NCBI GenBank assembly: GCA_965223905.1
Contig: CBDCXV010000011.1
Coordinates: forward strand, 1,856,001 to 1,920,000
Source: Candidatus Latescibacterota bacterium
Lineage (GTDB): Bacteria; Latescibacterota; UBA2968; UBA8231
Direction of reading: 5' to 3'
DNA: 64,000 nt
Positions 8,205-53,918 of this stretch are shown in pieces (the stretch's first letter is position 1; the number at the start of each line of letters is the position of its first letter). Below the pieces are notes generated by a model, which ran no database searches, was not told the DNA's origin, and worked only from the letters and a program-made list of their open reading frames with translations. The position numbers and the translations under genes are program-made.

Positions 8205-8281
8205 GGCGGCGTAGCTCAGTTGGTTAGAGCAGTGGAATCATAATCCACGTGTCGGGGGTTCGAGTCCCTCCGCCGCTACCA
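8205..8281 (+). tRNA. tRNA-Met(CAT), probably elongator
   Basis: GGCGGCGTAGCTCAGTTGGTTAGAGCA-GTGGA-ATCATAA-TCCAC-GTGTCGGGGGTTCGAGTCCCTCCGCCGCTACCA. G1:U72 pair and no triple G-C anticodon stem, so not initiator; Ile2 not formally excluded. Confidence 0.92.
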
Positions 8282-23816: not shown

Positions 23817-25028
23817 GTGAACAGGACGGTACACGGCTGGCTCACGGGTTTTGTGCGAGCCGGAAGCAGCGGCCAGCCGCACACATTCGGCAACCCTGCC
23901 GCTCTCTGCGCCGGCAGCGGCGACACAAAATGGCAGCAGACTGAAACGAACCTCCTCCTCGTCCGGGTACCGGCGTTCCCGCGGCTGGTTTCCCTCCTTC
24001 TTCTGCTGTTCCAGGCCCCGGCCCTGACGCCGGCATCCGCCGGCGAGGGCCCTGCAGCCGAATGGCAGAAGGGGATCACCTTCACCCACCTGTACCGGCC
24101 GCACAACAACCTCCTGTCGGAGCGGTCCCGGCGATCGCTCGAACACCTGCGCTCGCGAGTGGGGGCCGAGTGGATCGCCCTCAACCCGTTCGGGTACCAG
24201 CGCGACGTCGACGATCCAAACGTCCTCTTCGGCGGCGATCCCCCCGACGCCCACCTGCGCCACGCAATCGCCGGCGCCCGCGAGCTCGGCCTCAAGGTGA
24301 TGCTCAAACCGCACGTCTGGCTGCACCACCAGAGCGCCGAACGCTGGCGGGGGACGATCGCCATGAACAGCGAGGAGGACTGGGAAGCCTGGTTCGAAAG
24401 CTACGGGAAATTCATCCTCCATTACGCCGCCCTCGCCGAGGCGGAGGACGTCGAGATCTTCTGCATCGGGGTCGAGCTGGCGCGCACCGCGATCGAGCGC
24501 GAGCAGGACTGGCGCGACCTCGTCGCCGAGATCAGGAAGCGCTACCGCGGGCCGCTGGTGTACGCGGCGAACTGGTGGCAGGAGTACGACCGCATCGGTT
24601 TCTGGGAGGCCCTCGACTACATCGGCGTCAACGCCTTCTTCCCGTTAAGCGACGTCCCCGATCCCTCCTCGGAGACGCTGCGCTCCAAGGCCGAGGCGGT
24701 CGCCGGGGAGCTCGCGCTGCTGCACCAGCGCACCGGCAAACCGGTGCTGTTCACGGAGGTGGGGTTCAAGAGCACGCGCGGCACAGGCATGCGGCCCTGG
24801 CAGTGGCCGCGGCGGTACGAGCCGGAAATCGACCTCGAGGCTCAGTCGCGCTGCTACGAGGCGGTGCTGCAGGTTTTCTGGAGCAAGCCCTGGTTTTCCG
24901 GGATGTATTGGTGGAAGTGGTTCAGCGACCTCGACCGCGGCGGCGCCTCCCACCCCGGGTTCACCCCGCGAGGAAAGCCGGCTGAGGCCGTCCTCGCGGA
25001 GTGGTACCGAAAACCGAAGCCGAGATGA
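23817..25028 (+). CDS. Glycoside hydrolase family 113-like protein
   Basis: VMLKPHVW, IGVEL, YAANW, DYIGVNAFFPL and LFTEVG motifs; true start likely later. Confidence 0.75.
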   Translation: MNRTVHGWLTGFVRAGSSGQPHTFGNPAALCAGSGDTKWQQTETNLLLVRVPAFPRLVSLLLLLFQAPALTPASAGEGPAAEWQKGITFTHLYRPHNNLLSERSRRSLEHLRSRVGAEWIALNPFGYQRDVDDPNVLFGGDPPDAHLRHAIAGARELGLKVMLKPHVWLHHQSAERWRGTIAMNSEEDWEAWFESYGKFILHYAALAEAEDVEIFCIGVELARTAIEREQDWRDLVAEIRKRYRGPLVYAANWWQEYDRIGFWEALDYIGVNAFFPLSDVPDPSSETLRSKAEAVAGELALLHQRTGKPVLFTEVGFKSTRGTGMRPWQWPRRYEPEIDLEAQSRCYEAVLQVFWSKPWFSGMYWWKWFSDLDRGGASHPGFTPRGKPAEAVLAEWYRKPKPR

Positions 25029-25543
25029 ATCAGCGCAATCCTGCTGTTCCGGGGGCCTGAACGCCGGGGACGCCCGCTCAACTGGGAGCTGGTACTCCCC
25101 CGCCAGCTCCGCTTCGGTCCGGAACCGAGGGGTCTTGGGGACCGCCAGGGCCGCGGGATACACCAGGCCATGGACGAGGGAGGCGAAGCAGGCCCTTTGG
25201 GGTTCGCCCGAAACCGCGGCCCCTGGCCGGACTTCAGGATAACAGCTAAACCGACGAAGGGCCGCCCCCGCTTCCGGAACGTCTGAGCCGAGAGTTGAGA
25301 ATCGATCTGAGTCCGTAAAACAGGTCACCGGCTCCCTGAGTTCCAGCCCACCAGGGGAAAGCATTTCGTTTCCTGCGGAACATCTTTCCCACCCCGCCCG
25401 GCAGGCCTTCACCCGCGAGTTTCCACACACCCACCATATGCGGGGCCCCCTCCGGCCGGTCGCCCCCAGATCCGGAGGGCCTCCCCTGCAGCAGATCGCG
25501 TTGTTCCCCGAAACGGCGCTGGCCATCGGGGAGTCCCGGGACT

Positions 25544-25558
25544 TGGCACGCGGTTTGC
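25544..25558 (+). promoter_or_regulatory. Sigma54 (-24/-12) promoter
   Basis: TGGCAC-GCGGT-TTGC, an exact match to TGGCAC-N5-TTGC. Confidence 0.75.
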
Positions 25559-25569
25559 CGGAGGGTAAT

Positions 25570-25675
25570 CAGATCCATCCTCCCTGTGGTTCGGGATCCG
25601 AAGGCAGAGACTCCCCCTCGCATCCATCTGCTACTCCTCTCGCAGATGGAGCCTTCGGGTCCCGCATTTTTTTTT
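25570..25675 (+). ncRNA. Candidate sigma54-dependent small RNA (~105 nt)
   Basis: Starts at the predicted +1. Contains a 13-bp stem GGGATCCGAAGGC/GCCTTCGGGTCCC, an inner hairpin TCCATCTGC/GCAGATGGA, three CTCC-rich unpaired tracts and a terminal T9; no ORF. Confidence 0.55.
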
Positions 25676-26288
25676 ACGATTCCTGTCGCCAGGCGGGAAA
25701 CAGCTCCTGCCGGATCCCCAGCAGGTTGAGCACGCGGCCTGCCATGAAGTCGGCCAGATCGTCGAACGATTCGGGCTTCTGGTAGAAGGCCGGCATGGCG
25801 GGAACCACGGTGGCGCCGGCCTCGGCGAGCGCCGTCAGGTTGCGCAGCTGGATCAGGTTCAGCGGGGTCTCTCGCGGCACCAGGATCAACGGCCGCCGCT
25901 CCTTCAGGGCGACGTCGGCGGCGCGCTCGATCAGGTTGGAGGAGAAACCGCAGGCGATCGCGGCGAAGGTTTTGGCCGAGCAGGGAATGACCACCATCCC
26001 GTCCATCGCCACCGAGCCGCTGGCGAGCGCCGAGGTCAGGTCGTTGACTCCGTACTCGACGAGAGTGCCCGCAGCGACGCCGTCTCCGTACAGTCGCTGG
26101 AGAAACTGCTGCACCGACTCCTTGTCGGGCTTCAGGCCCATCTCCTCGTGCAGGATGTAGCGCCCGTACCGCGACAGTACCAGGTGGGCCTCATGGCCGC
26201 CCTGCAGCAGGGCGCGCAGGAAGCGGCAGGCGTAGATGCCGCCGCTCGCACCGGTGACGGCAACGGCGATTCTCCTGGTTTCACTCAT
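25674..26288 (-). CDS. ubiX: Flavin prenyltransferase UbiX
   Basis: [24 protein letters not shown] and PAMPAFY motifs. Confidence 0.93.
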
Positions 26289-28308
26289 CGGCTTCGCCTT
26301 GGCGGCTCCCGGTCCGATGCTGGTTCGCGGCGCCGGCCTGCAGGGTCTCGATGATGGCGTCGACGTCGTACACGCAGCCGCCCCAGGTGCCGCCGCCGAC
26401 GTTCTGCAGCGCCGCCCACAGCCTCGTGTCGTCAGGCAGTTCCTCCTCGGCGGCAAGGTCGGGGCGCGGCCGCCGCTGCCGCAGCACCTCTTCCCCGCGC
26501 CCGGCTCCGAACTCGACCCCGGCTTCCCCCACGAGGTCGAGACGGCCGCGCAGCGCGCGGGTGTCGATCTCGATGCCGACCAGGTCTCCGTCCCGCAGCT
26601 TGCCGAGCGGTCCGCCGCCGAGGGCCTCGGGTCCGATGTGGCCGACGCAGGCACCGGTCGAGAACCCGGAGAAACGCGCGTCGGTCAGCACCGCAACCCG
26701 GCTTCCGTAGTCGAGGTACTTCAGCGCCGTCGTCACCTGGGCGATCTCCTCCATGCCGGTGCCCAGGGGGCCGCAACTCAGCAGCACCATCACGTCCCCG
26801 GCCTCGATCCGCTGCGCCTTGAGGGCGGCGACTGCGGCGCGCTCGGTGGTGAAGATCTTCGCAGGACCGGTGTGCCGGTAGAAACCGTCTCCGTCGAGCA
26901 CCGCCGGGTCGATCGACGTGCTCTTCACCACCGATCCCTGCGGCGCCAGGTTGCCGCGCGGGAAGCAGACGGTGCTGGTCAGGCCTTTGCCGCGGGCCGC
27001 TTCCGGCGACATGATCACCTCGTCCGGGTCGACGCCGTCCGCGGCGCGCAACACCTCCCTGAAGCGGGCACGGCGCTCGCTGTTCTCCCACCAGTCGAGG
27101 TTCTCCCCGAGGGGCTTTCCGGTTGCGGTCAGGGCCTCTTCCTCGAGCAGGCCGAGGGCGCGCAGGTGCAGCATCACCTCCGGCACCCCTCCGGCCAGGA
27201 AGGCGCGCACGGTCGGGTGGTACTGCGGCCCGTTCGGCAGCACGTCGACGAGACGTGGCACCAGGCGGTTGAGGCGGTCCCAGTCCTCGACGGTGGGGCG
27301 CGGTCGCCCGGCGGCGTAGGCGATCGCCGGCACGTGCAGGATCAGGTTGGTCGAGCCGCCGAAGGCGGCGTGGGTGACCATGGCGTTGTGGAACGCCGCA
27401 TCGGTCAGCAGGTCCCGCGAGGCGATCCCGGCGCTTTCCAACGCCGTCACCGCCCGCGCGGTGCGCGTCGCCATGTCGTACCAGACCGGCTCCCCGGAAG
27501 GAGCGAGGGCGGCGTGCGGCAGGGTCAGCCCGAGCGCCTCGGCGACGACCTGCGAGGTCGCGGCGGTGCCGAGGAACTGGCAGCCGCCCCCGGCGGTGGC
27601 GCAGGCCCGGCAGCCGTAGTCGTTGACCTCGTCGATGGTGATCTCGCCGTGGGCCAGGCGCACCCCGACCGATTGGATCTTGCCGGCGTCCTCGCCGTGC
27701 TCCGGGGGCAGGGTGACCCCCCCGGGGATCACGGCGACCGGAAGGTCGCGGGTCCCGGCGAGGGCGATCAGCACTGCGGGCAGCCCCTTGTCGCAGGTTC
27801 CGACGCCGATGACGCCGCGGCGGGTCGGCAGCGAGCGGATCAGGCGCCTCATCACCAGGGCGGCGTCGTTGCGGTAAGGCAGGCTGTCGAACATCCCCGC
27901 GGTGCCCTGGGAGCGGCCGTCGCACGGGTCGGAGCAGTAGGCGGCGAACGGAATCCCCCCCAGCCGCCGGATCTCGCCGGCGGCCGCCTCCATCAGCAGC
28001 CCCACCTCCCAGTGCCCGGTGTGGTAGCCGAGGGCGACCGGGGAACCGTCCGGCGCCCTGATCCCCCCCATGGTGCTGATGATGAGGAACTCGTTGCGCC
28101 CGAGCTCGGAGGGGTCCCAGCCCATGCCGGCGTTCTGGCTGTAGGCGAAGATGTCGCCGCTCGGGGAGCCGATCACCTGCTCGATCTGCAGGGGCAGCTT
28201 GCCCTCCGGTCCGGGCGCCCGGGTGCGCACCTCGAATACGTCGTCTCGGGAGGGGGCCTCGACGATCTGCTCGAACCCCGGAAGCTGTCCGCTGGCGTTT
28301 CGCGTCAT
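26281..28308 (-). CDS. YjhG/YagF-type sugar-acid (D-xylonate) dehydratase, IlvD/Edd family
   Basis: [39 protein letters not shown] and TDARFSG motifs. Confidence 0.88.
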
Positions 28309-32559: not shown

Positions 32560-32660
32560 AATCGGTCTGTCTGTGGGGAGTGAGGGCGGGGAGAGCTTCC
32601 GCCGCGGTTCGAAGTGGTGTCGGCAGCGGATCGCCTGGCGGCGTCCGCAACCATCGCAAA

Positions 32661-32689
32661 AGTATATCCCCGGGGAGGGGGTGGGTCAA
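32661..32689 (-). promoter_or_regulatory. Sigma70 promoter upstream of mqnE
   Basis: TTGACC-N17-TATACT on the minus strand. Confidence 0.6.
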
Positions 32690-33450
32690 TCGGATTTGCG
32701 GCCCTGGTAAACGGCGCAGATACCCAGGGTCAGGGCGGTCGCCTTCGTGTCGGTGAACCCGGCCGCTTCCATCTCTTCGAGGAACCCCTTCCCCTGCGGA
32801 AAGCTGCCGACCGAGCGCGGCAGGTAGGAGTAGGCCTCCCTGTTGCCGGAGATCAGCCCGCCGACGAGCGGCAGCACCCGGTGGAAGTAGAAGCCGTAGA
32901 GCTGGCGAAATCCCGGCAGGGTCGGTTCGGTGAACTCGAGCACGATCACCTCGCCTCCGGGCCGCAGAACGCGCTCCGCCTCGGCGAGGCCGGCGCCGAG
33001 GCTGCCGAAGTTGCGCGCCCCGAAGGCGACGGTGACAAGGTCGAAGCAGCGGTCGCGGAAGGGCAGCATCTCCGCGTCCCCCGCCATCAGGACGGGGCCC
33101 GCGGCGCCAGCCCCACCGAGCTTCGTTCGGGCGATGCGGACCATGTCGATGGCTACGTCCACCCCGACGACGCGCCCCGGAGCGAGGCGCCCGGCGGCGC
33201 GCGCGAAATCCCCGGTGCCGGTGGCGAGGTCGAGGACGCGGGCGGGGCCGCGGCGTCGCACCGAGGCCAGTGCCCGGCGGCGCCAGTACAGGTCGACGCC
33301 ACCGCTCAGCAGGTGGTTGAGCAGATCGTAGCGCCCGGCAATGGCGTTGAACATCTGCTGAATTCGCCGCTTGCGAGCCCGTACCAATTCCGTATCGTCA
33401 GCCACGACCGCCCCGTTGAACGTGTTGAACCTCATAGAGCCGCGCGGCAA
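32686..33450 (-). CDS. menG: Demethylmenaquinone methyltransferase (UbiE/MenG)
   Basis: MFNAIAGRYDLLNHLLS, LDLATGTGD, AFGARN and AYSYLPRSV motifs; start uncertain. Confidence 0.92.
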   Translation of the reverse strand: MPRGSMRFNTFNGAVVADDTELVRARKRRIQQMFNAIAGRYDLLNHLLSGGVDLYWRRRALASVRRRGPARVLDLATGTGDFARAAGRLAPGRVVGVDVAIDMVRIARTKLGGAGAAGPVLMAGDAEMLPFRDRCFDLVTVAFGARNFGSLGAGLAEAERVLRPGGEVIVLEFTEPTLPGFRQLYGFYFHRVLPLVGGLISGNREAYSYLPRSVGSFPQGKGFLEEMEAAGFTDTKATALTLGICAVYQGRKSD

Positions 33451-33477
33451 CCCTATCCCGCGGCTAAAGGCCTGTCA

Positions 33478-34266
33478 ATGAACCAAAGCAGTGGGCAAGA
33501 GCCCGGCGAGGGACGCAGCGAGCGGGAGATCCTGCTCGGCGACCGGATGGCGGCCCTCGGCCGGCTCGCCGCCTCGGTCGCCCACGAGGTCCGCAACCCC
33601 CTCGGCGCCATCGACATCCAGCTGCAGCTGCTGCAGGAGGAGCTGCGGGCCGGAGGCGGCACCGCCGAACGCGCCGGCGAGCGCCTCGACACGGCGCGTG
33701 CCGAGCTGCGGCGGCTCGACAGGATCGTGCAGAACTTCCTGCGCTTCTCGCGCCCGCCGGCGCTGCTCCTCGCCCGGGTATCGCTCGCCGAGTTGCTGGC
33801 GCGGCTCCGCGAGCTGATCGAGCCGGAAGCGCGCGAGCGCGGAATCGCCCTGGGGCTGCGCCTCGACGAGAGGGGGGAGGACGCGGTCATAGACGCCGAC
33901 GAGAACCTGCTGAGCCAGGCGTTCCTCAACCTCCTGATCAACGCCCTGCAGGCCTGCGACGGCACCGACGGGGAGCGCCGCGGCAGCCCCGCGGGGGTCG
34001 AGATCGGCCTGCGCGTCCCCGACGACCGCAACGCCCTGGTGACCATCGGCGACCGCGGTTGCGGCATACCGCGAGGGGATCTGGAGAGGATCTTCGAGTA
34101 CTACTATACTACGAAGGACACGGGCACCGGACTGGGGCTCTCCATCGCCCAACGGATCGTCGACCAGCACCAGGGCAGCCTCGAAGTGGAGAGCGAGGAG
34201 GGAGCGGGAACCACGGTGTCCGTACGACTTCCCCTCGCGGTTCCAGCGGAAAAACCACTCGGATGA
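33478..34266 (+). CDS. NtrB-like histidine kinase lacking a sensor domain
   Basis: AHEVRNPL H-box about 35 aa from the start; NLLINALQA, DRGCGI and GTGLGL boxes. Confidence 0.88.
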   Translation: MNQSSGQEPGEGRSEREILLGDRMAALGRLAASVAHEVRNPLGAIDIQLQLLQEELRAGGGTAERAGERLDTARAELRRLDRIVQNFLRFSRPPALLLARVSLAELLARLRELIEPEARERGIALGLRLDERGEDAVIDADENLLSQAFLNLLINALQACDGTDGERRGSPAGVEIGLRVPDDRNALVTIGDRGCGIPRGDLERIFEYYYTTKDTGTGLGLSIAQRIVDQHQGSLEVESEEGAGTTVSVRLPLAVPAEKPLG

Positions 34267-35654
34267 AAGACCACGGCAGCTCGCGGGCGCGCCTCCTCAT
34301 CGCCGATGACGAGGTCTTCATCCGCGAGGGGCTGCAGGACGCCCTGCGGGAGCCGGGCCTCGACCTCCAGACCGCCGCGGACGGCCGCGAGGTGCGCCGC
34401 CGGCTGCGCAAGGGGGCCTTCGACGTCATCCTCCTCGACCTGCGCATGCCGGGGGTCTCCGGCATGGACCTGCTCGAGGAAATCCGCGAGCGACACCCGG
34501 AATCGAACGTCGTCATCCTCACCGCGCACGGCAGCGTCAACACCGCGGTCGAGGCGATGAAGAAGGGGGCCTTCGATTTCGTCACCAAGCCGGTCGACCT
34601 CACCCACGTCCGCCTCATCGTCAACCGCGCCCTCGACCGCGTCCGGCTCGTGCGCGAGAACCGCGAGCTGCACGACCGCCTCGGGCGCGGCGACAGCGAC
34701 GACCCCTTCCGGCGCATCGTGCGCCGCAGCGCCTCCATGCAGCAGGCGACGCGCACCGTCAAGCAGGTGGCCATGTCCGACGTCCCGGTGCTGCTCCGGG
34801 GTGAGACCGGGGCGGGCAAGGAGCTGATCGCGCGCACGATCCACGAGCGCAGCCGCCGGCGCGAGGGGCCGTTCGTTGCCGTCAACTGCGGCGGCTTCAC
34901 CCAGGACCTGTTCGGCAGCGAGCTGTTCGGGCACAAACGCGGGGCCTTCACGGGGGCCCACGTCGACCGGCCGGGCCGCTTCGCCGTGGCCGAGAAGGGC
35001 ACCCTGTTCCTCGACGAAGTCGGCGAGATCCCGCTGAAGAACCAGGTCGAGCTGCTGCGCGCCCTCGAGAACCGCGAGTTCCAGCCGCTCGGCGACACCA
35101 AGGTCCACAAGGCGGACGTGCGCGTCATCGCCGCCACCAACCGCCACCTCGAAACCGCGGTCAGCGAGGGCGAATTCCGCGAGGATCTCTTCTACCGCCT
35201 CAACGTCGTGCCGATCGACGTCCCCCCTCTCAGGGAGCGGCGCGAGGACATCCCGCTGCTCGTCGAGACCTTCTTCGACGAGGTCTGCCGGGCCTACGAT
35301 CAGCCCCGCAAGAAAGCCGGCAAGGAGGCTGTCGATCTCTTCGTCTCCTACCACTGGCCGGGAAACGTGCGCGAGCTGCGCAACGTCATACAGCGGCTGG
35401 TGATAACCTGCCCCGAGACCATTATCGAGCCGCAGCACCTGCGCGAGGCACTGGGCGAGGCCGCGGTCGACCAGCCAGGCCCCGGAATGGGGGAATTCAC
35501 CATCTCCCTCGGCTCCTCCATCGAGGACGTCGAAGCGGAGCTGATCCGGCAGACGCTGCAGCGGGTAACCTCCAACCGCCGCGAGGCCGCGGCGGTGCTG
35601 GGAATCAGCGTGCGCTCCCTGCAGTACAAACTCAAGCAGTACAAGCTGACCTGA
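34263..35654 (+). CDS. NtrC/AtoC-family sigma54-dependent response regulator
   Basis: Receiver domain (ADDE, LDLRMP), GETGAGKE, ELFGHKRGAFTGA, WPGNVREL and C-terminal Fis-type HTH. Confidence 0.95.
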   Translation: MKDHGSSRARLLIADDEVFIREGLQDALREPGLDLQTAADGREVRRRLRKGAFDVILLDLRMPGVSGMDLLEEIRERHPESNVVILTAHGSVNTAVEAMKKGAFDFVTKPVDLTHVRLIVNRALDRVRLVRENRELHDRLGRGDSDDPFRRIVRRSASMQQATRTVKQVAMSDVPVLLRGETGAGKELIARTIHERSRRREGPFVAVNCGGFTQDLFGSELFGHKRGAFTGAHVDRPGRFAVAEKGTLFLDEVGEIPLKNQVELLRALENREFQPLGDTKVHKADVRVIAATNRHLETAVSEGEFREDLFYRLNVVPIDVPPLRERREDIPLLVETFFDEVCRAYDQPRKKAGKEAVDLFVSYHWPGNVRELRNVIQRLVITCPETIIEPQHLREALGEAAVDQPGPGMGEFTISLGSSIEDVEAELIRQTLQRVTSNRREAAAVLGISVRSLQYKLKQYKLT

Positions 35655-35790
35655 TCCTCCGCCTGAATGCAATTCTTGCACCAAACTCACCCTGCCGGGT
35701 GCGCCAACGCAGAGACAGGGTCGAGGGCACCTTCCGGTAATTCGCGTAACACAAGGAAAAACAGCAAGTAAACAGTACTTTTTTCCCCCG

Positions 35791-35806
35791 TGGCACCGAG
35801 TTTGCA
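35791..35806 (+). promoter_or_regulatory. Sigma54 (-24/-12) promoter
   Basis: TGGCAC-CGAGT-TTGCA; upstream palindrome TGCAATTCTTGCA (35668-35680) is a candidate enhancer. Confidence 0.75.
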
Positions 35807-36027
35807 GCGTCCTTTCCCGGCCGGGAGATCATGCGGGCCGCTGCCGAACCAGGATCCGGAAACGACGGGCGGTCGGCCCGCCAGGCCATTGAATCCCACC
35901 GCGCCGGTTCGTTCAGCGACCAGCCCGCGGCAGCAGACCCGGAATATTCCCGATACTGCGCAAATAATGCAGCCCTTCATCGCCTGCGGCCTGATCTCCG
36001 CAGAGCCATAATAAACAACCGGTTACG

Positions 36028-36639
36028 ATGATTTTCCGCGACGCCCTGGACAGCGACGCAGATTTTGCAGCAGACAGCCCTTCGGGGACCGTCACCGCCA
36101 TGCCCGGACTGCTCCAAAAGACCATGATGGTCCCCCACCTCCGCTCCGACTCCAAGATCGGCGCCATCAAACAGCTCGTCGACCGACTCTACCGCGGCGG
36201 GCTGCTCAACGACAGCCTCAGCTTCCTGCAGGCGCTTCTCGAACGGGAGAACCTCGGCAGCACGGTGATCGGAGGCACCATCGCCCTGCCCCATGCCCGC
36301 GCCCGCAGCGTCACCGGCCTGGGGATGGCGCTGGGTGTGTGCGAGGAGCCGATCTACTATCCGAGCGGCGACGACCTCTGCGCGGTGCGGGCGGTCTGCG
36401 TGATCGCCGTGCCGATGGACTCCCCAAGCCAGTATCTCGGCCTGCTCTCCCACCTCGCCGGGGCTTTCGGCGACGGCGACTTCGTGCACCGCCTTCTCGC
36501 AGCCCCCTCGGCGCAGGGGATGAGCGAGTTGATGTCGGCCCGGTTGCGCGTTGCCGGAGAGAGGACGGCGGCCAACGTCGGAGAACGCCTCCCCGCAGGT
36601 GCCGCCCTGGCGGGGGCGAACCCGGGAGCCGGCGAATAG
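36028..36639 (+). CDS. PTS EIIA (PtsN/fructose-type EIIA domain) protein
   Basis: LLERENLGSTVIGGTIALPHAR with the phospho-His; start may be 36100. Confidence 0.85.
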   Translation: MIFRDALDSDADFAADSPSGTVTAMPGLLQKTMMVPHLRSDSKIGAIKQLVDRLYRGGLLNDSLSFLQALLERENLGSTVIGGTIALPHARARSVTGLGMALGVCEEPIYYPSGDDLCAVRAVCVIAVPMDSPSQYLGLLSHLAGAFGDGDFVHRLLAAPSAQGMSELMSARLRVAGERTAANVGERLPAGAALAGANPGAGE

Positions 36640-37491
36640 ATGGCCTACTCGGAAGGATTCAGGGAAGAGGAGGGCTCGCTGCGCCTCTATTTCGAGGACC
36701 TCAGCGATTCGACCCCGCTGACGCGGGAACGGGAGGTCGAGCTCTCGGAGCGGATAAAGGCGGGCGACCTCCAGGCCCGGAACGAGCTGGTCCAGGCGAA
36801 TCTCCGCTTCGTCATCGACGTCGCCAAGCAGTATCAGAACCGCGGCCTCGGGTTGTCCGACCTGATCAGCGCCGGCAACCTCGGCCTGATGAAGGCCGCG
36901 GAGCGTTTCGACGGCGAGCGCGGCTTCAAGTTCATCTCCTACGCCGTCTGGTGGATCAGGCAGTCGATCCTGCAGACGATCGCCGACCACGGCCGCACCG
37001 TGCGCCTGCCGCTCAACAAGCTCGCACTGCTCAAGAACATCGGTAAAGCGTCCATGCGGCTCGGCGAGGGCCGCGATTCCGAGCCGCACATCGAGGAGAT
37101 CGCCCAAGAGCTCGAGCTGCCGGAGGAAGAGGTGCTCGACGCGATCATGAGCGCCCGCAGCGTGCGCTCGCTGGACGAGAGCTTCGAAGAGGACGGGGAG
37201 CGCGGCCTCCTGAGCGTCCTCGTCGACGAGAACCAGGTCTCCCCTGACTCCGACCTGATGGAGGACTCGTCGCGCAGCCGGATAGAGGAGATCCTCGCCA
37301 GCCTCGACGAGCGCGAGCTGCTCATCATCCGGCTCTACTACGGGTTCGGGGGAAACGAAAGGATGAGCCTGGAGAAGATCGGCGGGCGCTTGAACCTGAC
37401 CAGGGAGCGGGTCCGGCAGCTCAAGGAACGCGCCCTGAACAAGCTGCGGCATCCCAGCCGCTGCAACGCGTTGATGGCGGTCTGCGACTGA
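36640..37491 (+). CDS. RpoD/RpoS-family sigma70 factor lacking region 1.1
   Basis: ANLRFVIDVAKQY, GFKFISYAVWWIRQSI and LTRERVRQLKERAL motifs. Confidence 0.93.
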   Translation: MAYSEGFREEEGSLRLYFEDLSDSTPLTREREVELSERIKAGDLQARNELVQANLRFVIDVAKQYQNRGLGLSDLISAGNLGLMKAAERFDGERGFKFISYAVWWIRQSILQTIADHGRTVRLPLNKLALLKNIGKASMRLGEGRDSEPHIEEIAQELELPEEEVLDAIMSARSVRSLDESFEEDGERGLLSVLVDENQVSPDSDLMEDSSRSRIEEILASLDERELLIIRLYYGFGGNERMSLEKIGGRLNLTRERVRQLKERALNKLRHPSRCNALMAVCD

Positions 37492-39060: not shown

Positions 39061-39138
39061 TTGACCTCCTCCGGATGCGTCCGTACCCTGGGATATTACA
39101 TTTTTGTATCTTATTTTTTCGAATCGACGATTTTGTCG
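39061..39138 (+). promoter_or_regulatory. Promoter of the NifA-like gene with paired palindromic sites just downstream
   Basis: TTGACC-N17-TACCCT, then TTACA-TTTT-TGTAT (39096) and CGACG-ATTT-TGTCG (39125). Confidence 0.6.
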
Positions 39139-39183
39139 TCTCGTCAAAATCGCACCATCACCTCTACCAAAAGGTGGCCTGTC

Positions 39184-40725
<1,542 letters not shown>

Positions 40726-40853
40726 CTGACCCCCTGCCGGTACCGTGGAACCCGGTCGCCAGGGCATCCTGGACTGCATCTTCGATGCGGCAGGTGTTTG
40801 CCGGGAGGACCGGCGGTGCGGAGGCCGTAACATAGGGCGACCTTCGATATTTT

Positions 40854-40897
40854 CTACATTTATGTCGTGTAAAAATCCGATAACGACATGATTGTTT
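40854..40897. promoter_or_regulatory. Paired upstream activator sites for amtB
   Basis: CTACA-TTTA-TGTCG (40854) and CGACA-TGAT-TGTTT (40884), 30 bp apart, about 95-140 bp upstream of the -24 box. Confidence 0.65.
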
Positions 40898-40990
40898 CTT
40901 GATTCACACGACGTCCCCGCAGGGGTCCATCGAAGACAACCTGTTGTAAACACGCGACTTGCGCGTCCGGACCGGGAAGTTTTTCGCGCC

Positions 40991-41006
40991 TGGCATTCGG
41001 TTTGCA
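40991..41006 (+). promoter_or_regulatory. Sigma54 promoter of amtB-glnK
   Basis: TGGCAT-TCGGT-TTGCA. Confidence 0.8.
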
Positions 41007-41081
41007 TTCGGTAATGGCTGAAATCGGTTTCTCAATACCGATCGCACCACCCATTCCAAACCGCATCGAAAGGAGTCGGGA

Positions 41082-42488
41082 ATGCGGACCCTGCTCGTTC
41101 CCCTGGCCCTGGCCGCGGCGATGGCGCCGGCCGCTGCCGCTGCCGAAACCCCGGACATCGCCACTCAGCTCTCCGGACTCGCGTCCCAGATCGACTGGTA
41201 CTGGACCTGTGTAGCCGCCTTCCTCGTGTTCTTCATGCAGGCGGGATTCGCCCTCGTCGAGTCCGGGTTCACGCGCGCCAAGAACACCGTCAACATTCTG
41301 ATGAAGAACCTGATGGACTTCTCCGTCGGGGCCATCGCCTTCTGGGCCGTCGGTTTCGGGCTGATGTTCAGCGCCACCACCGGGCTCTTCGGCTGGGGGG
41401 AATTCTTTCCCAACCCGGACGTCAACGCCTTCGGTGAAGATCCGAACTGGATGTACTCCTTTCTGATCTTCCAGACCGTGTTCGCGGCGACCGCGGCGAC
41501 CATCGTTTCGGGCGCCATGGCGGAGCGCACCCGGTTCTCCTCCTATCTCATCTACAGCGTCGCCATCACCGGGATCATCTACCCGATCACCGGTTCCTGG
41601 GCCTGGGGCGGACTCTGGCACGGCGGCGGCTGGCTCGAGGGGCTTGGGTTCGTCGACTTCGCCGGCTCCACCGTCGTCCACAGCGTCGGCGGCTGGGCCG
41701 CCCTGGCCGGGGCCATCGTTCTCGGAGCGCGCAAGGGCAAGTTCAACCCCGACGGCAGCGCCAACGCCATCGTCGGCCACAGCATGCCTCTGGCCGCCAT
41801 GGGGGTGTTCATCCTCTGGCTCGGCTGGTTCGGCTTCAACGCCGGCTCGACCACCTCGATGGACGGCGGCAACTTCGCCCGCGTCGCCTTCGTCACCAAT
41901 CTCGCCGCGGCCGGCGGGGCCCTCGGCGCCATGATCACCAGCTGGATCCGCTTCGGCAAGCCCGACGTGTCGATGGCCCTCAACGGCGCCCTGGCCGGTC
42001 TCGTCGGCATCACCGCCGGCTGCTACACGATGACCCCGATCGGGGGGCTGCTGACCGGTTTCCTCGCGGGAATCCTCGTGGTCTTCTCCGTCCTCTTTTT
42101 CGACAGGATCAAGGTCGACGATCCGGTGGGCGCCATCTCCGTGCACGGGGTATGCGGCGCCTGGGGCACCTTCGCCTGCGCCATTCCCCTCCTCTGCCGG
42201 CCCGGCGAGGCCGCCAGCGTCGCCACCCAGCTGACCGGTATCGGCGCCATCTTCCTCTTCACCTTCGCCGCCTCCCTCGCCCTGTTCTCGACGATCAAGG
42301 CGACCGTCGGCCTCAGGGTCTCTCCAGAGGACGAGGAGGAGGGCCTCGACCTCGTCGAGCACGGCATGAGCGCCTACCACGATCAGTCGCTCGACTCCCT
42401 GATAAAGGCGGCCGGAGCCGCCGAGGGCGGCAGGATCGTCATCGAGCCGGCACCGCGGGGTTCCGGCGTCAACCCAGAAACCACCTGA
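41082..42488 (+). CDS. amtB: Ammonium transporter
   Basis: FFMQAGFALVE, DFAGSTVVH, WFGFNAGS and DDPVGAISVHG motifs. Confidence 0.97.
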   Translation: MRTLLVPLALAAAMAPAAAAAETPDIATQLSGLASQIDWYWTCVAAFLVFFMQAGFALVESGFTRAKNTVNILMKNLMDFSVGAIAFWAVGFGLMFSATTGLFGWGEFFPNPDVNAFGEDPNWMYSFLIFQTVFAATAATIVSGAMAERTRFSSYLIYSVAITGIIYPITGSWAWGGLWHGGGWLEGLGFVDFAGSTVVHSVGGWAALAGAIVLGARKGKFNPDGSANAIVGHSMPLAAMGVFILWLGWFGFNAGSTTSMDGGNFARVAFVTNLAAAGGALGAMITSWIRFGKPDVSMALNGALAGLVGITAGCYTMTPIGGLLTGFLAGILVVFSVLFFDRIKVDDPVGAISVHGVCGAWGTFACAIPLLCRPGEAASVATQLTGIGAIFLFTFAASLALFSTIKATVGLRVSPEDEEEGLDLVEHGMSAYHDQSLDSLIKAAGAAEGGRIVIEPAPRGSGVNPETT

Positions 42489-52204: not shown

Positions 52205-53918
52205 ATGGCACGAACACTGGACCGGCGCGCCTACGCCGACATGTACGGACCGACCACCGGGGACCGGGTCCGCCTCGGCGACACCGCGCTCGAGGTGGTT
52301 GTCGAGGAGGACGCCAACCTCTACGGGGAGGAGTGCAAGTTCGGCGGCGGCAAGGTGCTGCGCGACGGCATGGGGCAGGCCGCCGGGGCGACCGGGGCGG
52401 AGGCCCTCGACCTGCTGATCACCAACGCCCTCGTCATCGACCACGGCGGCATCCGCAAGGCCGACGTCGGCATCAAGGGGGGCCGCATCCTCGGGGTCGG
52501 CAAGGCCGGCAACCCCGACATCATGCCGGCCGTCGATGCCGGGATGGTCGCCGGGGTGACCACGGAGGTGATCGCCGGAGAGGGGCTGATCCTGACCGCG
52601 GGGGCGCTCGACGTCCACGTCCACTTCATCTGCCCGCAGCAGGTGGAGGAAGCGGTCGCCTCCGGGATCACGACGATGATCGGCGGCGGCACCGGTCCGG
52701 CCACCGGCACCAACGCCACCACCTGCACCCCGGGGGCCTTCCACATCGAGACCATGCTCAGGGCGAGCGACGCCTGGCCCCTGAACTTCGGCTTCCTCGG
52801 CAAGGGGAACTCCTCCTTCCCGGAGGGGCTGCGCGGGCAGGTCCGGGCCGGGGCCTGCGGTCTCAAGCTGCACGAGGACTGGGGCACCACCCCCGCGGCG
52901 ATCGACACCTGCCTCGCCGTGGCCGAGGAGGAGGACATCCAGGTCGCCATCCACACCGACACCCTCAACGAGTCCGGCTTCGTCGAGCAGTCGCGGCAGG
53001 CGTTCAGGGGCCGCACCATCCACACCTACCACACGGAAGGGGCCGGCGGCGGCCACGCCCCCGACATCATACGGCTGTGCGGGGAACAGAACGTGCTCCC
53101 CTCCTCGACCAATCCGACGCGGCCGTTCACGGTCAACACCATCGACGAGCACCTCGACATGCTGATGGTCTGCCACCACCTCGACAGGAACATCCCGGAG
53201 GACGTCGCCTTCGCCGAAAGCCGCATCCGCAAAGAGACCATCGCCGCCGAGGACATCCTCCACGACATCGGGGCGTTCTCCATCATCGCCTCGGACAGCC
53301 AGGCGATGGGACGGGTAGGCGAGGTCGTCTGCCGGACCTGGCAGACCGCCCACAAGATGAAGCTGCAGCGCGGCCCCCTTCCCGGGGACCGGGGGACCGG
53401 CGCCGACAACCTCAGGGTGAGGCGCTACATCGCCAAGTACACCATCAACCCGGCGATCGCCCACGGCGTCAGCCGCCACGTCGGCTCGGTCGAGGCGGGC
53501 AAGCTCGCCGACCTCGTGCTCTGGAAGCCGGCCTGCTTCGGCTCGCGGCCGGAAATGGTCGTCAAGGGCGGGGTCATCGCCTGGTCCCAGATGGGGGGAT
53601 GCCAACGCCTCCATACCGACCCCCGAGCCGGTCATTCCCCGGCCGATGTTCGGCGCCTTCGGGAACGCCATAGGTCGGACGTCCCTGAGCTTCGTCTCGC
53701 GGAACGGAGCCGAGGCCGCGGCCGGGTACGGCCTGGCGAAGGCGGTCGCCCCGGTCGAGTCCTGCCGGGGGCTGGGGAAGAGGGACATGATCCTCAACGA
53801 CCTCACCCCTGAGATCGAGGTCGACCCGGAGACCTACAAGGTGCGCGCCGACGGAGAGGTGCTGACCTGCGAGCCCGCGGCCAAGCTGCCCCTCGCCCAG
53901 CTCTACAACCTCTTCTGA
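52205..53918 (+). CDS. ureC: Urease alpha subunit with a +1 frameshift in a G6 run (~53593-53598)
   Basis: [23 protein letters not shown] and MVCHHL motifs. Removing one G restores [13 protein letters not shown] and the C-terminal [10 protein letters not shown]. Confidence 0.93.

Follow-up and report, generated by a model that had tools for sequence, protein, structure and literature searches.

A sigma-54 promoter in Candidatus Latescibacterota precedes a predicted small RNA with exposed, anti-Shine-Dalgarno-like motifs

What does a sigma-54 promoter control when it points at no gene? In the window (the whole 64,000-nucleotide stretch of Candidatus Latescibacterota DNA that we analyzed), the sequence TGGCACGCGGTTTGC at positions 25544–25558 of the + strand matches the consensus TGGCAC-N5-TTGC exactly, with TGGCAC as its −24 and TTGC as its −12 element, and has the GG at −24 and the GC at −12, ten bases apart, by which a sigma-54 promoter is recognized. 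The nearest upstream gene, which encodes a GH113 glycoside hydrolase on the + strand, has its stop at 25028, leaving a gap of 515 bp before the promoter, close to the ~500 bp of non-coding DNA noted in a first-pass annotation of this stretch. That annotation had also remarked that the promoter points at no ORF, and in the source genome (G000) there is indeed none downstream; the next gene is convergent (25674–26294, − strand) and encodes a UbiX-type flavoprotein (Pfam Flavoprotein, 4.4e-43). This ubiX gene, which we regard as a neighbor only, is the last of a menaquinone (futalosine-type) cluster that continues with genes for UbiA, a VitK2_biosynth protein and a radical SAM/CofH_C (MqnC/E-like) protein. 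Small RNAs (sRNAs) that depend on sigma-54 and an enhancer-binding protein include Qrr, GlmY, CrcZ and Pxr, and we asked whether the orphan promoter likewise precedes an RNA gene. We conclude with high confidence that the locus, as predicted from its sequence, is a real and uncatalogued one.

The predicted sRNA occupies positions 25570–25675 of the + strand (~102–106 nt), both ends being inferred from the fold and the alignment. Its +1 would lie at 25570, 12 nt past the −12 GC, at a CAGA shared by most relatives at that position, and over 38 homologous loci the median predicted length is 105 nt. In the predicted fold, a 5′ hairpin (25575–25589) pairs CCAT (25575–25578) with GTGG (25586–25589) around a C/U-rich loop, CCTCCCT in the DNA and CCUCCCU in the RNA, which we call seed 1. 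There follows a conserved 3′ domain (25593–25663), the part described by our covariance model, in which a 13-bp outer stem (25593–25605 with 25651–25663) encloses both the single-stranded seed 2 (ACTCCCCCT, positions 25610–25618; in RNA ACUCCCCCU, CUCCCCCU) and a hairpin with a 9-bp inner stem (25623–25631 with 25642–25650), the loop of which is seed 3 (TACTCCTCTC, positions 25632–25641; in RNA UACUCCUCUC) and contains CUCCUC. A run of nine T residues (25667–25675) completes, together with the outer stem, an intrinsic terminator, and the ubiX stop codon (25674–25676) overlaps this run by 2 nt. The box, the 5′ hairpin, the 13-bp and 9-bp stems, the loops and the T-run had all been described in the first-pass annotation, and every one of them is present.

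By itself, and within one window, the promoter motif could be due to chance: allowing up to one mismatch, TGGCAC-N5-TTGC occurs four times in the window against 3.24 occurrences expected, and 39 of 100 shuffles contain at least four. Genome-wide, exact sigma-54 boxes number 36, compared with 14 for a backwards control. What does place this promoter above chance is that the box is kept at 38 of 38 homologous loci, upstream of all 30 strong and 8 weaker matches to the family. At these loci the −24 element reads TGGCAC in 32 cases, TGGTAC in three, GGGCAC in two and TGGCAT in one, always with TTGC at −12, and an alignment of 30 loci shows no variation in the GG, A and TTGC columns. The box lies 32–54 nt from the conserved domain in most loci and 86–151 nt from it in about ten; at least in genus g13, the longer space is filled by a further hairpin that again has a CUCCUC loop. 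In G000 there are one rpoN gene (Sigma54_DBD, 202.8 bits) and 16 strong genes for enhancer-binding proteins (Sigma54_activat), and because its promoter is of the sigma-54 type, the RNA should need such a protein.

The structure behind the promoter is both stable and conserved. On the + strand, positions 25565–25680 fold with a minimum free energy (MFE) of −45.4 kcal/mol (z −4.88), which 0 of 200 shuffles equaled; the corresponding values for the − strand are −43.1 kcal/mol and −2.78. The covariance model of the 3′ domain rests on 12 sequences and comprises 22 pairs. Across 30 sequences, of which 28 are distinct, standard pairs fill 96.9% of pair cells, versus 89.3% after shuffling and 29–48% with slid partners, and changes on both sides occur in 14 of the 22 pairs versus 5.7 in shuffles; none of 500 shuffles reached any of these measures, which the fitting of the 30-sequence alignment to the model favors somewhat, and with which an independent MAFFT alignment of 12 sequences agrees, RNAalifold finding in it 22 pairs, 7 of them compensatory. 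Because G.U or U.G wobbles, which would be mismatches if read from the opposite strand, make up 48 of 608 pair cells, and because the covariance score in G000 is 97.3 bits in the sense direction versus 23.3 bits in antisense (a 74-bit difference), we assign the RNA to the + strand.

Conservation is seen at short range as well. Among members of the window's genus, identity is 90–92% over the RNA, versus 81–87% for a 261-nt stretch that includes its upstream flank, and in genus g3 a G-C pair in G004 is replaced by A-U in G020. The C/U-rich loops are kept along with the stems: CUCCUC of seed 3 is almost invariant and unpaired in nearly all MFE folds, and the 5′ hairpin, variable in sequence, recurs in many relatives with a UCCUC, CUCCUC or CCUCCC loop. 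In G000 the three C/U-rich motifs are 75–100% unpaired in the MFE fold, and at least two motif clusters are present in 35 of the 38 family members. The first-pass annotation had counted a lack of conserved promoter or structure among relatives as evidence against its reading; the box persists at every locus, the stems covary and the loops are retained. A small peptide encoded inside the RNA was considered and rejected, as the sole ATG falls within the inner stem and is unconserved (CAGACG or CAGGCA in relatives), the alignment has gaps of 1, 2 and 6–7 nt, and no conserved ORF was found inside the RNA.

How widely is this RNA distributed? When 61 related genomes were searched with blastn, 12 places matched (E ≤ 2.6e-5), one per genome, all with the 3′ domain in common. 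The covariance model found one copy in each of 36 of 76 genomes of the family, spanning 16 of 18 genera, at E ≤ 0.001, and two further matches at E ≤ 0.01, which brings the count, a lower bound, to 38 genomes and at least 17 genera of one Candidatus Latescibacterota family. The model matched 0 of 31, 0 of 22 and 1 of 3 genomes in other families of the class and 1 of 87 in an even sample of the phylum outside the family; the lone outside match is weak, lacks a promoter and looks like an unrelated terminator. As far as searched, then, the family appears restricted to one Candidatus Latescibacterota family. Within it, the RNA is more widespread than the model shows, because the model missed a locus in G019 (L088, − strand, ~1344 onward) at which a sigma-54 box is present and a divergent, very G+C-rich and C-rich RNA stands behind TGGCACAGCCGTTGCC, in the syntenic place between the GH113 and ubiX genes. 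A clean absence is seen in G031, in which rsmB/F and ubiX nearly abut. A pattern scan of public genomes gave 15 records, of which 10 are labelled Candidatus Latescibacterota, three Gemmatimonadetes or Gemmatimonadaceae, one Handelsmanbacteria and one uncultured bacterium.

Nor did the RNA turn up under another name. Searches with Rfam 15 gave nothing at the gathering score at the locus or at the loci of six representative relatives, RF02344 (ar14) scoring 16.3 bits (E 1.4) at the locus against a gathering score of 58.8, and a literature search yielded no relevant paper linking Latescibacter* with small RNA, sRNA or sigma54. The description of this RNA as undescribed, made at first pass, thus holds for both Rfam and the literature searched on Latescibacterota sRNAs. 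Latescibacterota (formerly WS3) have no cultured member; the locus gives this phylum a well-supported sRNA family and a covariance model by which its members can be annotated, as well as a clear addition to the sigma-54-controlled sRNAs outside Proteobacteria.

Conservation extends into the DNA upstream of the promoter, where motifs recur in a fixed order over the ~200–260 nt before it: two of the form GGAA...TTTTCCC, followed by two of the form C.A.AT, whose columns are invariant in both copies, 32 nt apart, in the 30 aligned loci. In the window these conserved motifs are GGGGAAAGCATTTCGTTTCC (25354–25373), GGAACATCTTTCCCACCCC (25377–25395), CCACCATATGCGGGG (25431–25445) and CCCCAGATCC (25464–25473), all on the + strand, and their common order across the 30 loci marks out 25354–25473 as a putative enhancer or regulator-binding region. 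Most genera have in addition an A-run, a ACAYGTGGTAWCACATGG palindrome, a T-run and then an AT-rich spacer containing a TAA-N4-TTGTT-like site, which resembles the IHF consensus; the palindrome is not evident in G000 or its G+C-rich genus. Because RNAalifold finds 0 pairs in the upstream block, the motifs most probably act at the level of DNA, and we rejected the block as a second RNA; the array would most simply comprise sites for an activator and a DNA-bending protein. The palindrome was also tried, and rejected, as the marker of a regulon: allowing up to three mismatches, it occurs in G010 and G004 at the RNA locus only and is absent from G020, G016 and G018. G012, which has neither the sigma-54 box nor the RNA any longer, retains the first three upstream motifs.

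Which protein might bind there? No activator gene lies within 1.5 kb of the RNA, the nearest being ~9 kb away. This is an NtrC-type regulator (34059–35654, part of a two-component unit at 32614–35654) whose orthologues lie 8.3–9 kb from the RNA in all five of the other genomes checked. We rejected this syntenic regulator as the cognate activator, as it also occurs in genomes that lack the RNA: it is kept, at 64–70% identity, in G031, G074 and G012, which have neither a match to the model nor a sigma-54 box at ubiX. Because it is retained in these genomes, and because a sigma-54 promoter of its own lies downstream of it, at 35791, the regulator is not specifically linked to the RNA.

As to what the RNA does, the reading that we favor, with moderate confidence, is that positions 25570–25675 encode a stand-alone, sigma-54-driven trans-acting regulatory RNA of ~105 nt that pairs, independently of Hfq, with ribosome-binding or other G-rich sites. 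Transcription by sigma-54 would start once an enhancer-binding protein, presumably bound to the upstream motif array, activates it, and the transcript is predicted to end at the outer stem and the T9 run. Its three single-stranded motifs (CCUCCCU, CUCCCCCU and CUCCUC), which resemble the anti-Shine-Dalgarno tail of the cell's own 16S rRNA, would then pair with several mRNAs, at ribosome-binding sites of the GGAG type or at other G-rich sites, and block their translation for as long as the sigma-54 signal is on.

Several features of G000 bear on this proposal. The 3′ end of its 16S rRNA reads ...GGATCACCTCCTTTCT / ...CACCTCCTTTCT, a standard CCUCC tail, and GGAG or GAGG occurs at −18 to −4 in 31.8% of 836 ORFs with clean starts, versus a background of 12.2%, with a peak at −14 to −10. 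Neither Hfq nor CsrA was found in this genome, which is 93.6% complete; one gene for an RRM_1 protein is present. A duplex scan of the three seeds against positions −35 to +18 of 4757 crude starts gave no excess over reversed seeds (775 versus 791 duplexes at ≤ −18 kcal/mol, and 298 versus 291 at ≤ −20 kcal/mol), a result that is uninformative because the genome is 64% G+C. Complementarity of the RNA's motifs to Shine-Dalgarno sequences is generic.

Known sRNAs offer precedents for each part of the design, so that what we describe is a new family that follows known lines and adds no new principle. The suggestion, made at first pass, that sRNAs with CCUCC loops can pair with ribosome-binding sites is borne out by NfeR1/alpha-r14 (RF02344) of alpha-proteobacteria, which is described in PMC10746234 as having three hairpins with CCUCCUCCC anti-Shine-Dalgarno motifs, which target ribosome-binding sites redundantly and independently of Hfq. 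Like the RNA studied here, it is ~100–150 nt long and exposes CCUCC-type motifs on several hairpins; unlike it, NfeR1 comes from another phylum, has its three stems in a row rather than nested, carries identical motifs where those here are non-identical, and is transcribed from a sigma-70-type promoter that the same source explicitly describes as free of a sigma-54 signature, and the two share no homology. Xanthomonas sX13, as portrayed in PMC3771888, is a highly structured RNA of about the same size (115 nt) whose C-rich apical loops act on G-rich mRNA motifs near start codons, repressing independently of Hfq in a genome that, like the one here, is G+C-rich and has such sites in only a minority of genes. 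Here too there is no sequence relation, the sX13 loops being CCCC where ours are CUCCUC, and sX13 is not reported there to be sigma-54-dependent. The exposed C/U-rich motifs of our RNA fit the design of both NfeR1/alpha-r14 and sX13, and trans-acting anti-Shine-Dalgarno regulation is the leading candidate mechanism.

For control by sigma-54, which the first-pass annotation had invoked by pointing to the existence of sigma-54-dependent sRNAs, the closest parallel that we found is the regulome of Desulfovibrio vulgaris, in which, according to PMC4641369, there are four sigma-54-dependent ncRNAs and some activators have an ncRNA listed as their only target. Those ncRNAs resemble ours in combining an orphan −24/−12 promoter with a short non-coding RNA, and such dedicated activators recall the palindrome, which in the two genomes that have it is unique to the RNA locus. 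Unlike our RNA, however, the Desulfovibrio ncRNAs adjoin the genes of their activators. Both properties meet in Campylobacter CJnc230 (FlmE), an RpoN-dependent RNA that is described in PMC11187230 as repressing mRNAs through a single-stranded anti-Shine-Dalgarno motif; CJnc230 derives, by processing, from the flgE mRNA's 3′ end, whereas a promoter of its own precedes the RNA described here, which in relatives is found 5′ of a small ORF.

That ORF raises the question of whether the RNA acts in cis. In 16 of the 38 loci, a homologous ORF of 33–71 amino acids follows the RNA stem on the same strand (L033:1594–1797, L036:1617–1829, L059:1617–1820 and 13 more loci), beginning 22–45 nt past the stem (84 nt in one locus) and mostly preceded by GGAG-like sites. 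Its product has, by inspection, a basic N-terminus and one predicted hydrophobic membrane helix, and has no match among the families of Pfam or NCBIfam (E ≤ 0.01). Because the ORF follows the RNA in these 16 relatives, the family is sometimes a leader, and the RNA could be read throughout as a cis-acting 5′ leader of a small membrane-protein gene, which masks the gene's ribosome-binding site or acts by attenuation, with the G000 copy a leftover devoid of trans targets. Such a leader would be consistent with the distribution of T-runs, those of at least four residues following the stem in 13 of 38 loci and those of at least five in 8 of the 22 ORF-less loci versus none of the 16 ORF-bearing ones (Fisher p 0.012, overstated since the genomes are related), and with the mixed genera g14, g16 and g18, which suggest repeated loss of the ORF.

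We nonetheless consider it unlikely that the RNA is a leader and nothing else. The 22 loci without the ORF, among which are whole genera, keep the promoter, stems and loops; the compensatory change between G004 and G020 arose between two species of g3 that both lack the ORF; and the RNA of the window's genus is better conserved than the stretch with its flank. Retention of the RNA, with compensatory changes, at loci that lack the ORF suggests that it has a function of its own. No homologue of the small ORF exists anywhere in G000 (best E 4.2) or in any of the three members of its genus, and because there is no downstream ORF and the T9 terminator is strong, we take the G000 RNA to be stand-alone. 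The family therefore has two forms, a leader joined to a small gene and a terminated stand-alone RNA, and the window contains the second: the same-strand downstream ORF by which a cis-regulatory leader is recognized is absent from the window and present in 16 of 38 relatives, and intrinsic termination as a stand-alone sRNA, as in G000, characterizes only part of the family. Paralogues of the small ORF at a second locus directly follow a gene ending ...GGPFNPRVP...YH, and at eight such loci we found no TGGCAC-type box upstream, one loose pattern match falling inside coding sequence.

One possible history, which we put forward tentatively and with considerable doubt, is that a sigma-54 promoter, a C/U-rich leader and a small membrane-protein gene were ancestral, and that the ORF was lost repeatedly, even within single genera, while in some lineages, this one included, the outer stem gained a long U-run that turned the leader into a trans-acting RNA of ~105 nt whose stems and loops are still under selection. 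If this were so, one and the same set of loops would control the ORF's ribosome-binding site in cis in some species and other mRNAs in trans in others. The ORF-bearing and ORF-less versions form a natural series in which the interconversion of leader and sRNA can be studied.

A further alternative is that the RNA titrates a protein and does not pair with mRNAs. An RNA that sequesters a protein specific for C/U-rich loops, in the manner of CsrB/RsmZ or CrcZ with different motifs, would be expected to display repeated, exposed and near-identical motifs on stable stems, of which the long forms here have up to four clusters; G000 has the one RRM_1 protein gene, and the duplex scan gave no target signal. 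Such a sponge is, however, rather improbable, given that CsrA and Hfq were not found, that the gene neighborhood points to no protein partner, and that the motifs, which match the anti-Shine-Dalgarno sequence, are most simply read as having an RNA for a partner.

Finally, the idea that the hairpin is a mere terminator or 3′ stabilizer of the convergent ubiX/menaquinone operon, with the sigma-54 box there by chance, can be set aside as extremely improbable: although the ubiX stop overlaps the T-run, the − strand also folds and the promoter motif alone is not significant in one window, the box is kept at every locus, the stem lies anywhere between −21 and +786 nt from the ubiX stop (ubiX being convergent in 34 of 38 loci and not nearby in four), the wobbles and the sense/antisense difference favor the + strand, and no U-run follows the hairpin on the − strand. 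A related caveat in the first-pass annotation, that the 3′ stem could also serve as the terminator of the mqn operon, is largely answered by these results, the structure going with the promoter and not with ubiX.

Other sigma-54 boxes and RNA matches were encountered in the course of these searches. At 32614–37491 of the window, a histidine kinase gene and the NtrC-type activator gene are followed by the perfect TGGCAC-N5-TTGC at 35791, an untranslated stretch of ~237 nt that could hold another RNA element, and genes for a PTS EIIA-2 (PtsN-like) protein and a sigma-70-family sigma factor. At 39061–42488, the gene for a GAF-domain sigma-54 activator comes first, then TGGCATTCGGTTTGC at 40991 and a gene for an ammonium transporter, an arrangement that looks like a nitrogen-control unit. 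Rfam matches elsewhere in the window comprise two tRNA genes (56–137, − strand, 51.1 bits; 8205–8278, + strand, 66.7 bits) and 5_ureB_sRNA at 52358–52652 on the − strand (47.7 bits where the gathering score is 40, with a bias of 29.1 and many non-canonical pairs), which is probably no sRNA but a resemblance to a coding region for urease. On contigs C1, C9, C10 and C11 of G000, a sigma-54 box together with the same ~60 nt of downstream sequence (ATGGCACAGTCTTTGCA...ACAGGATCCGAACGCGCAGG...) occurs seven times, each time ~50 nt before an ORF of ~110–114 amino acids, and a second pair of boxes (TTGGCACAGGATTTGCAGAC / TTGGCACAGAATTTGC[AG]AAC) recurs four to five times each; both sets may belong to multi-copy or mobile units.
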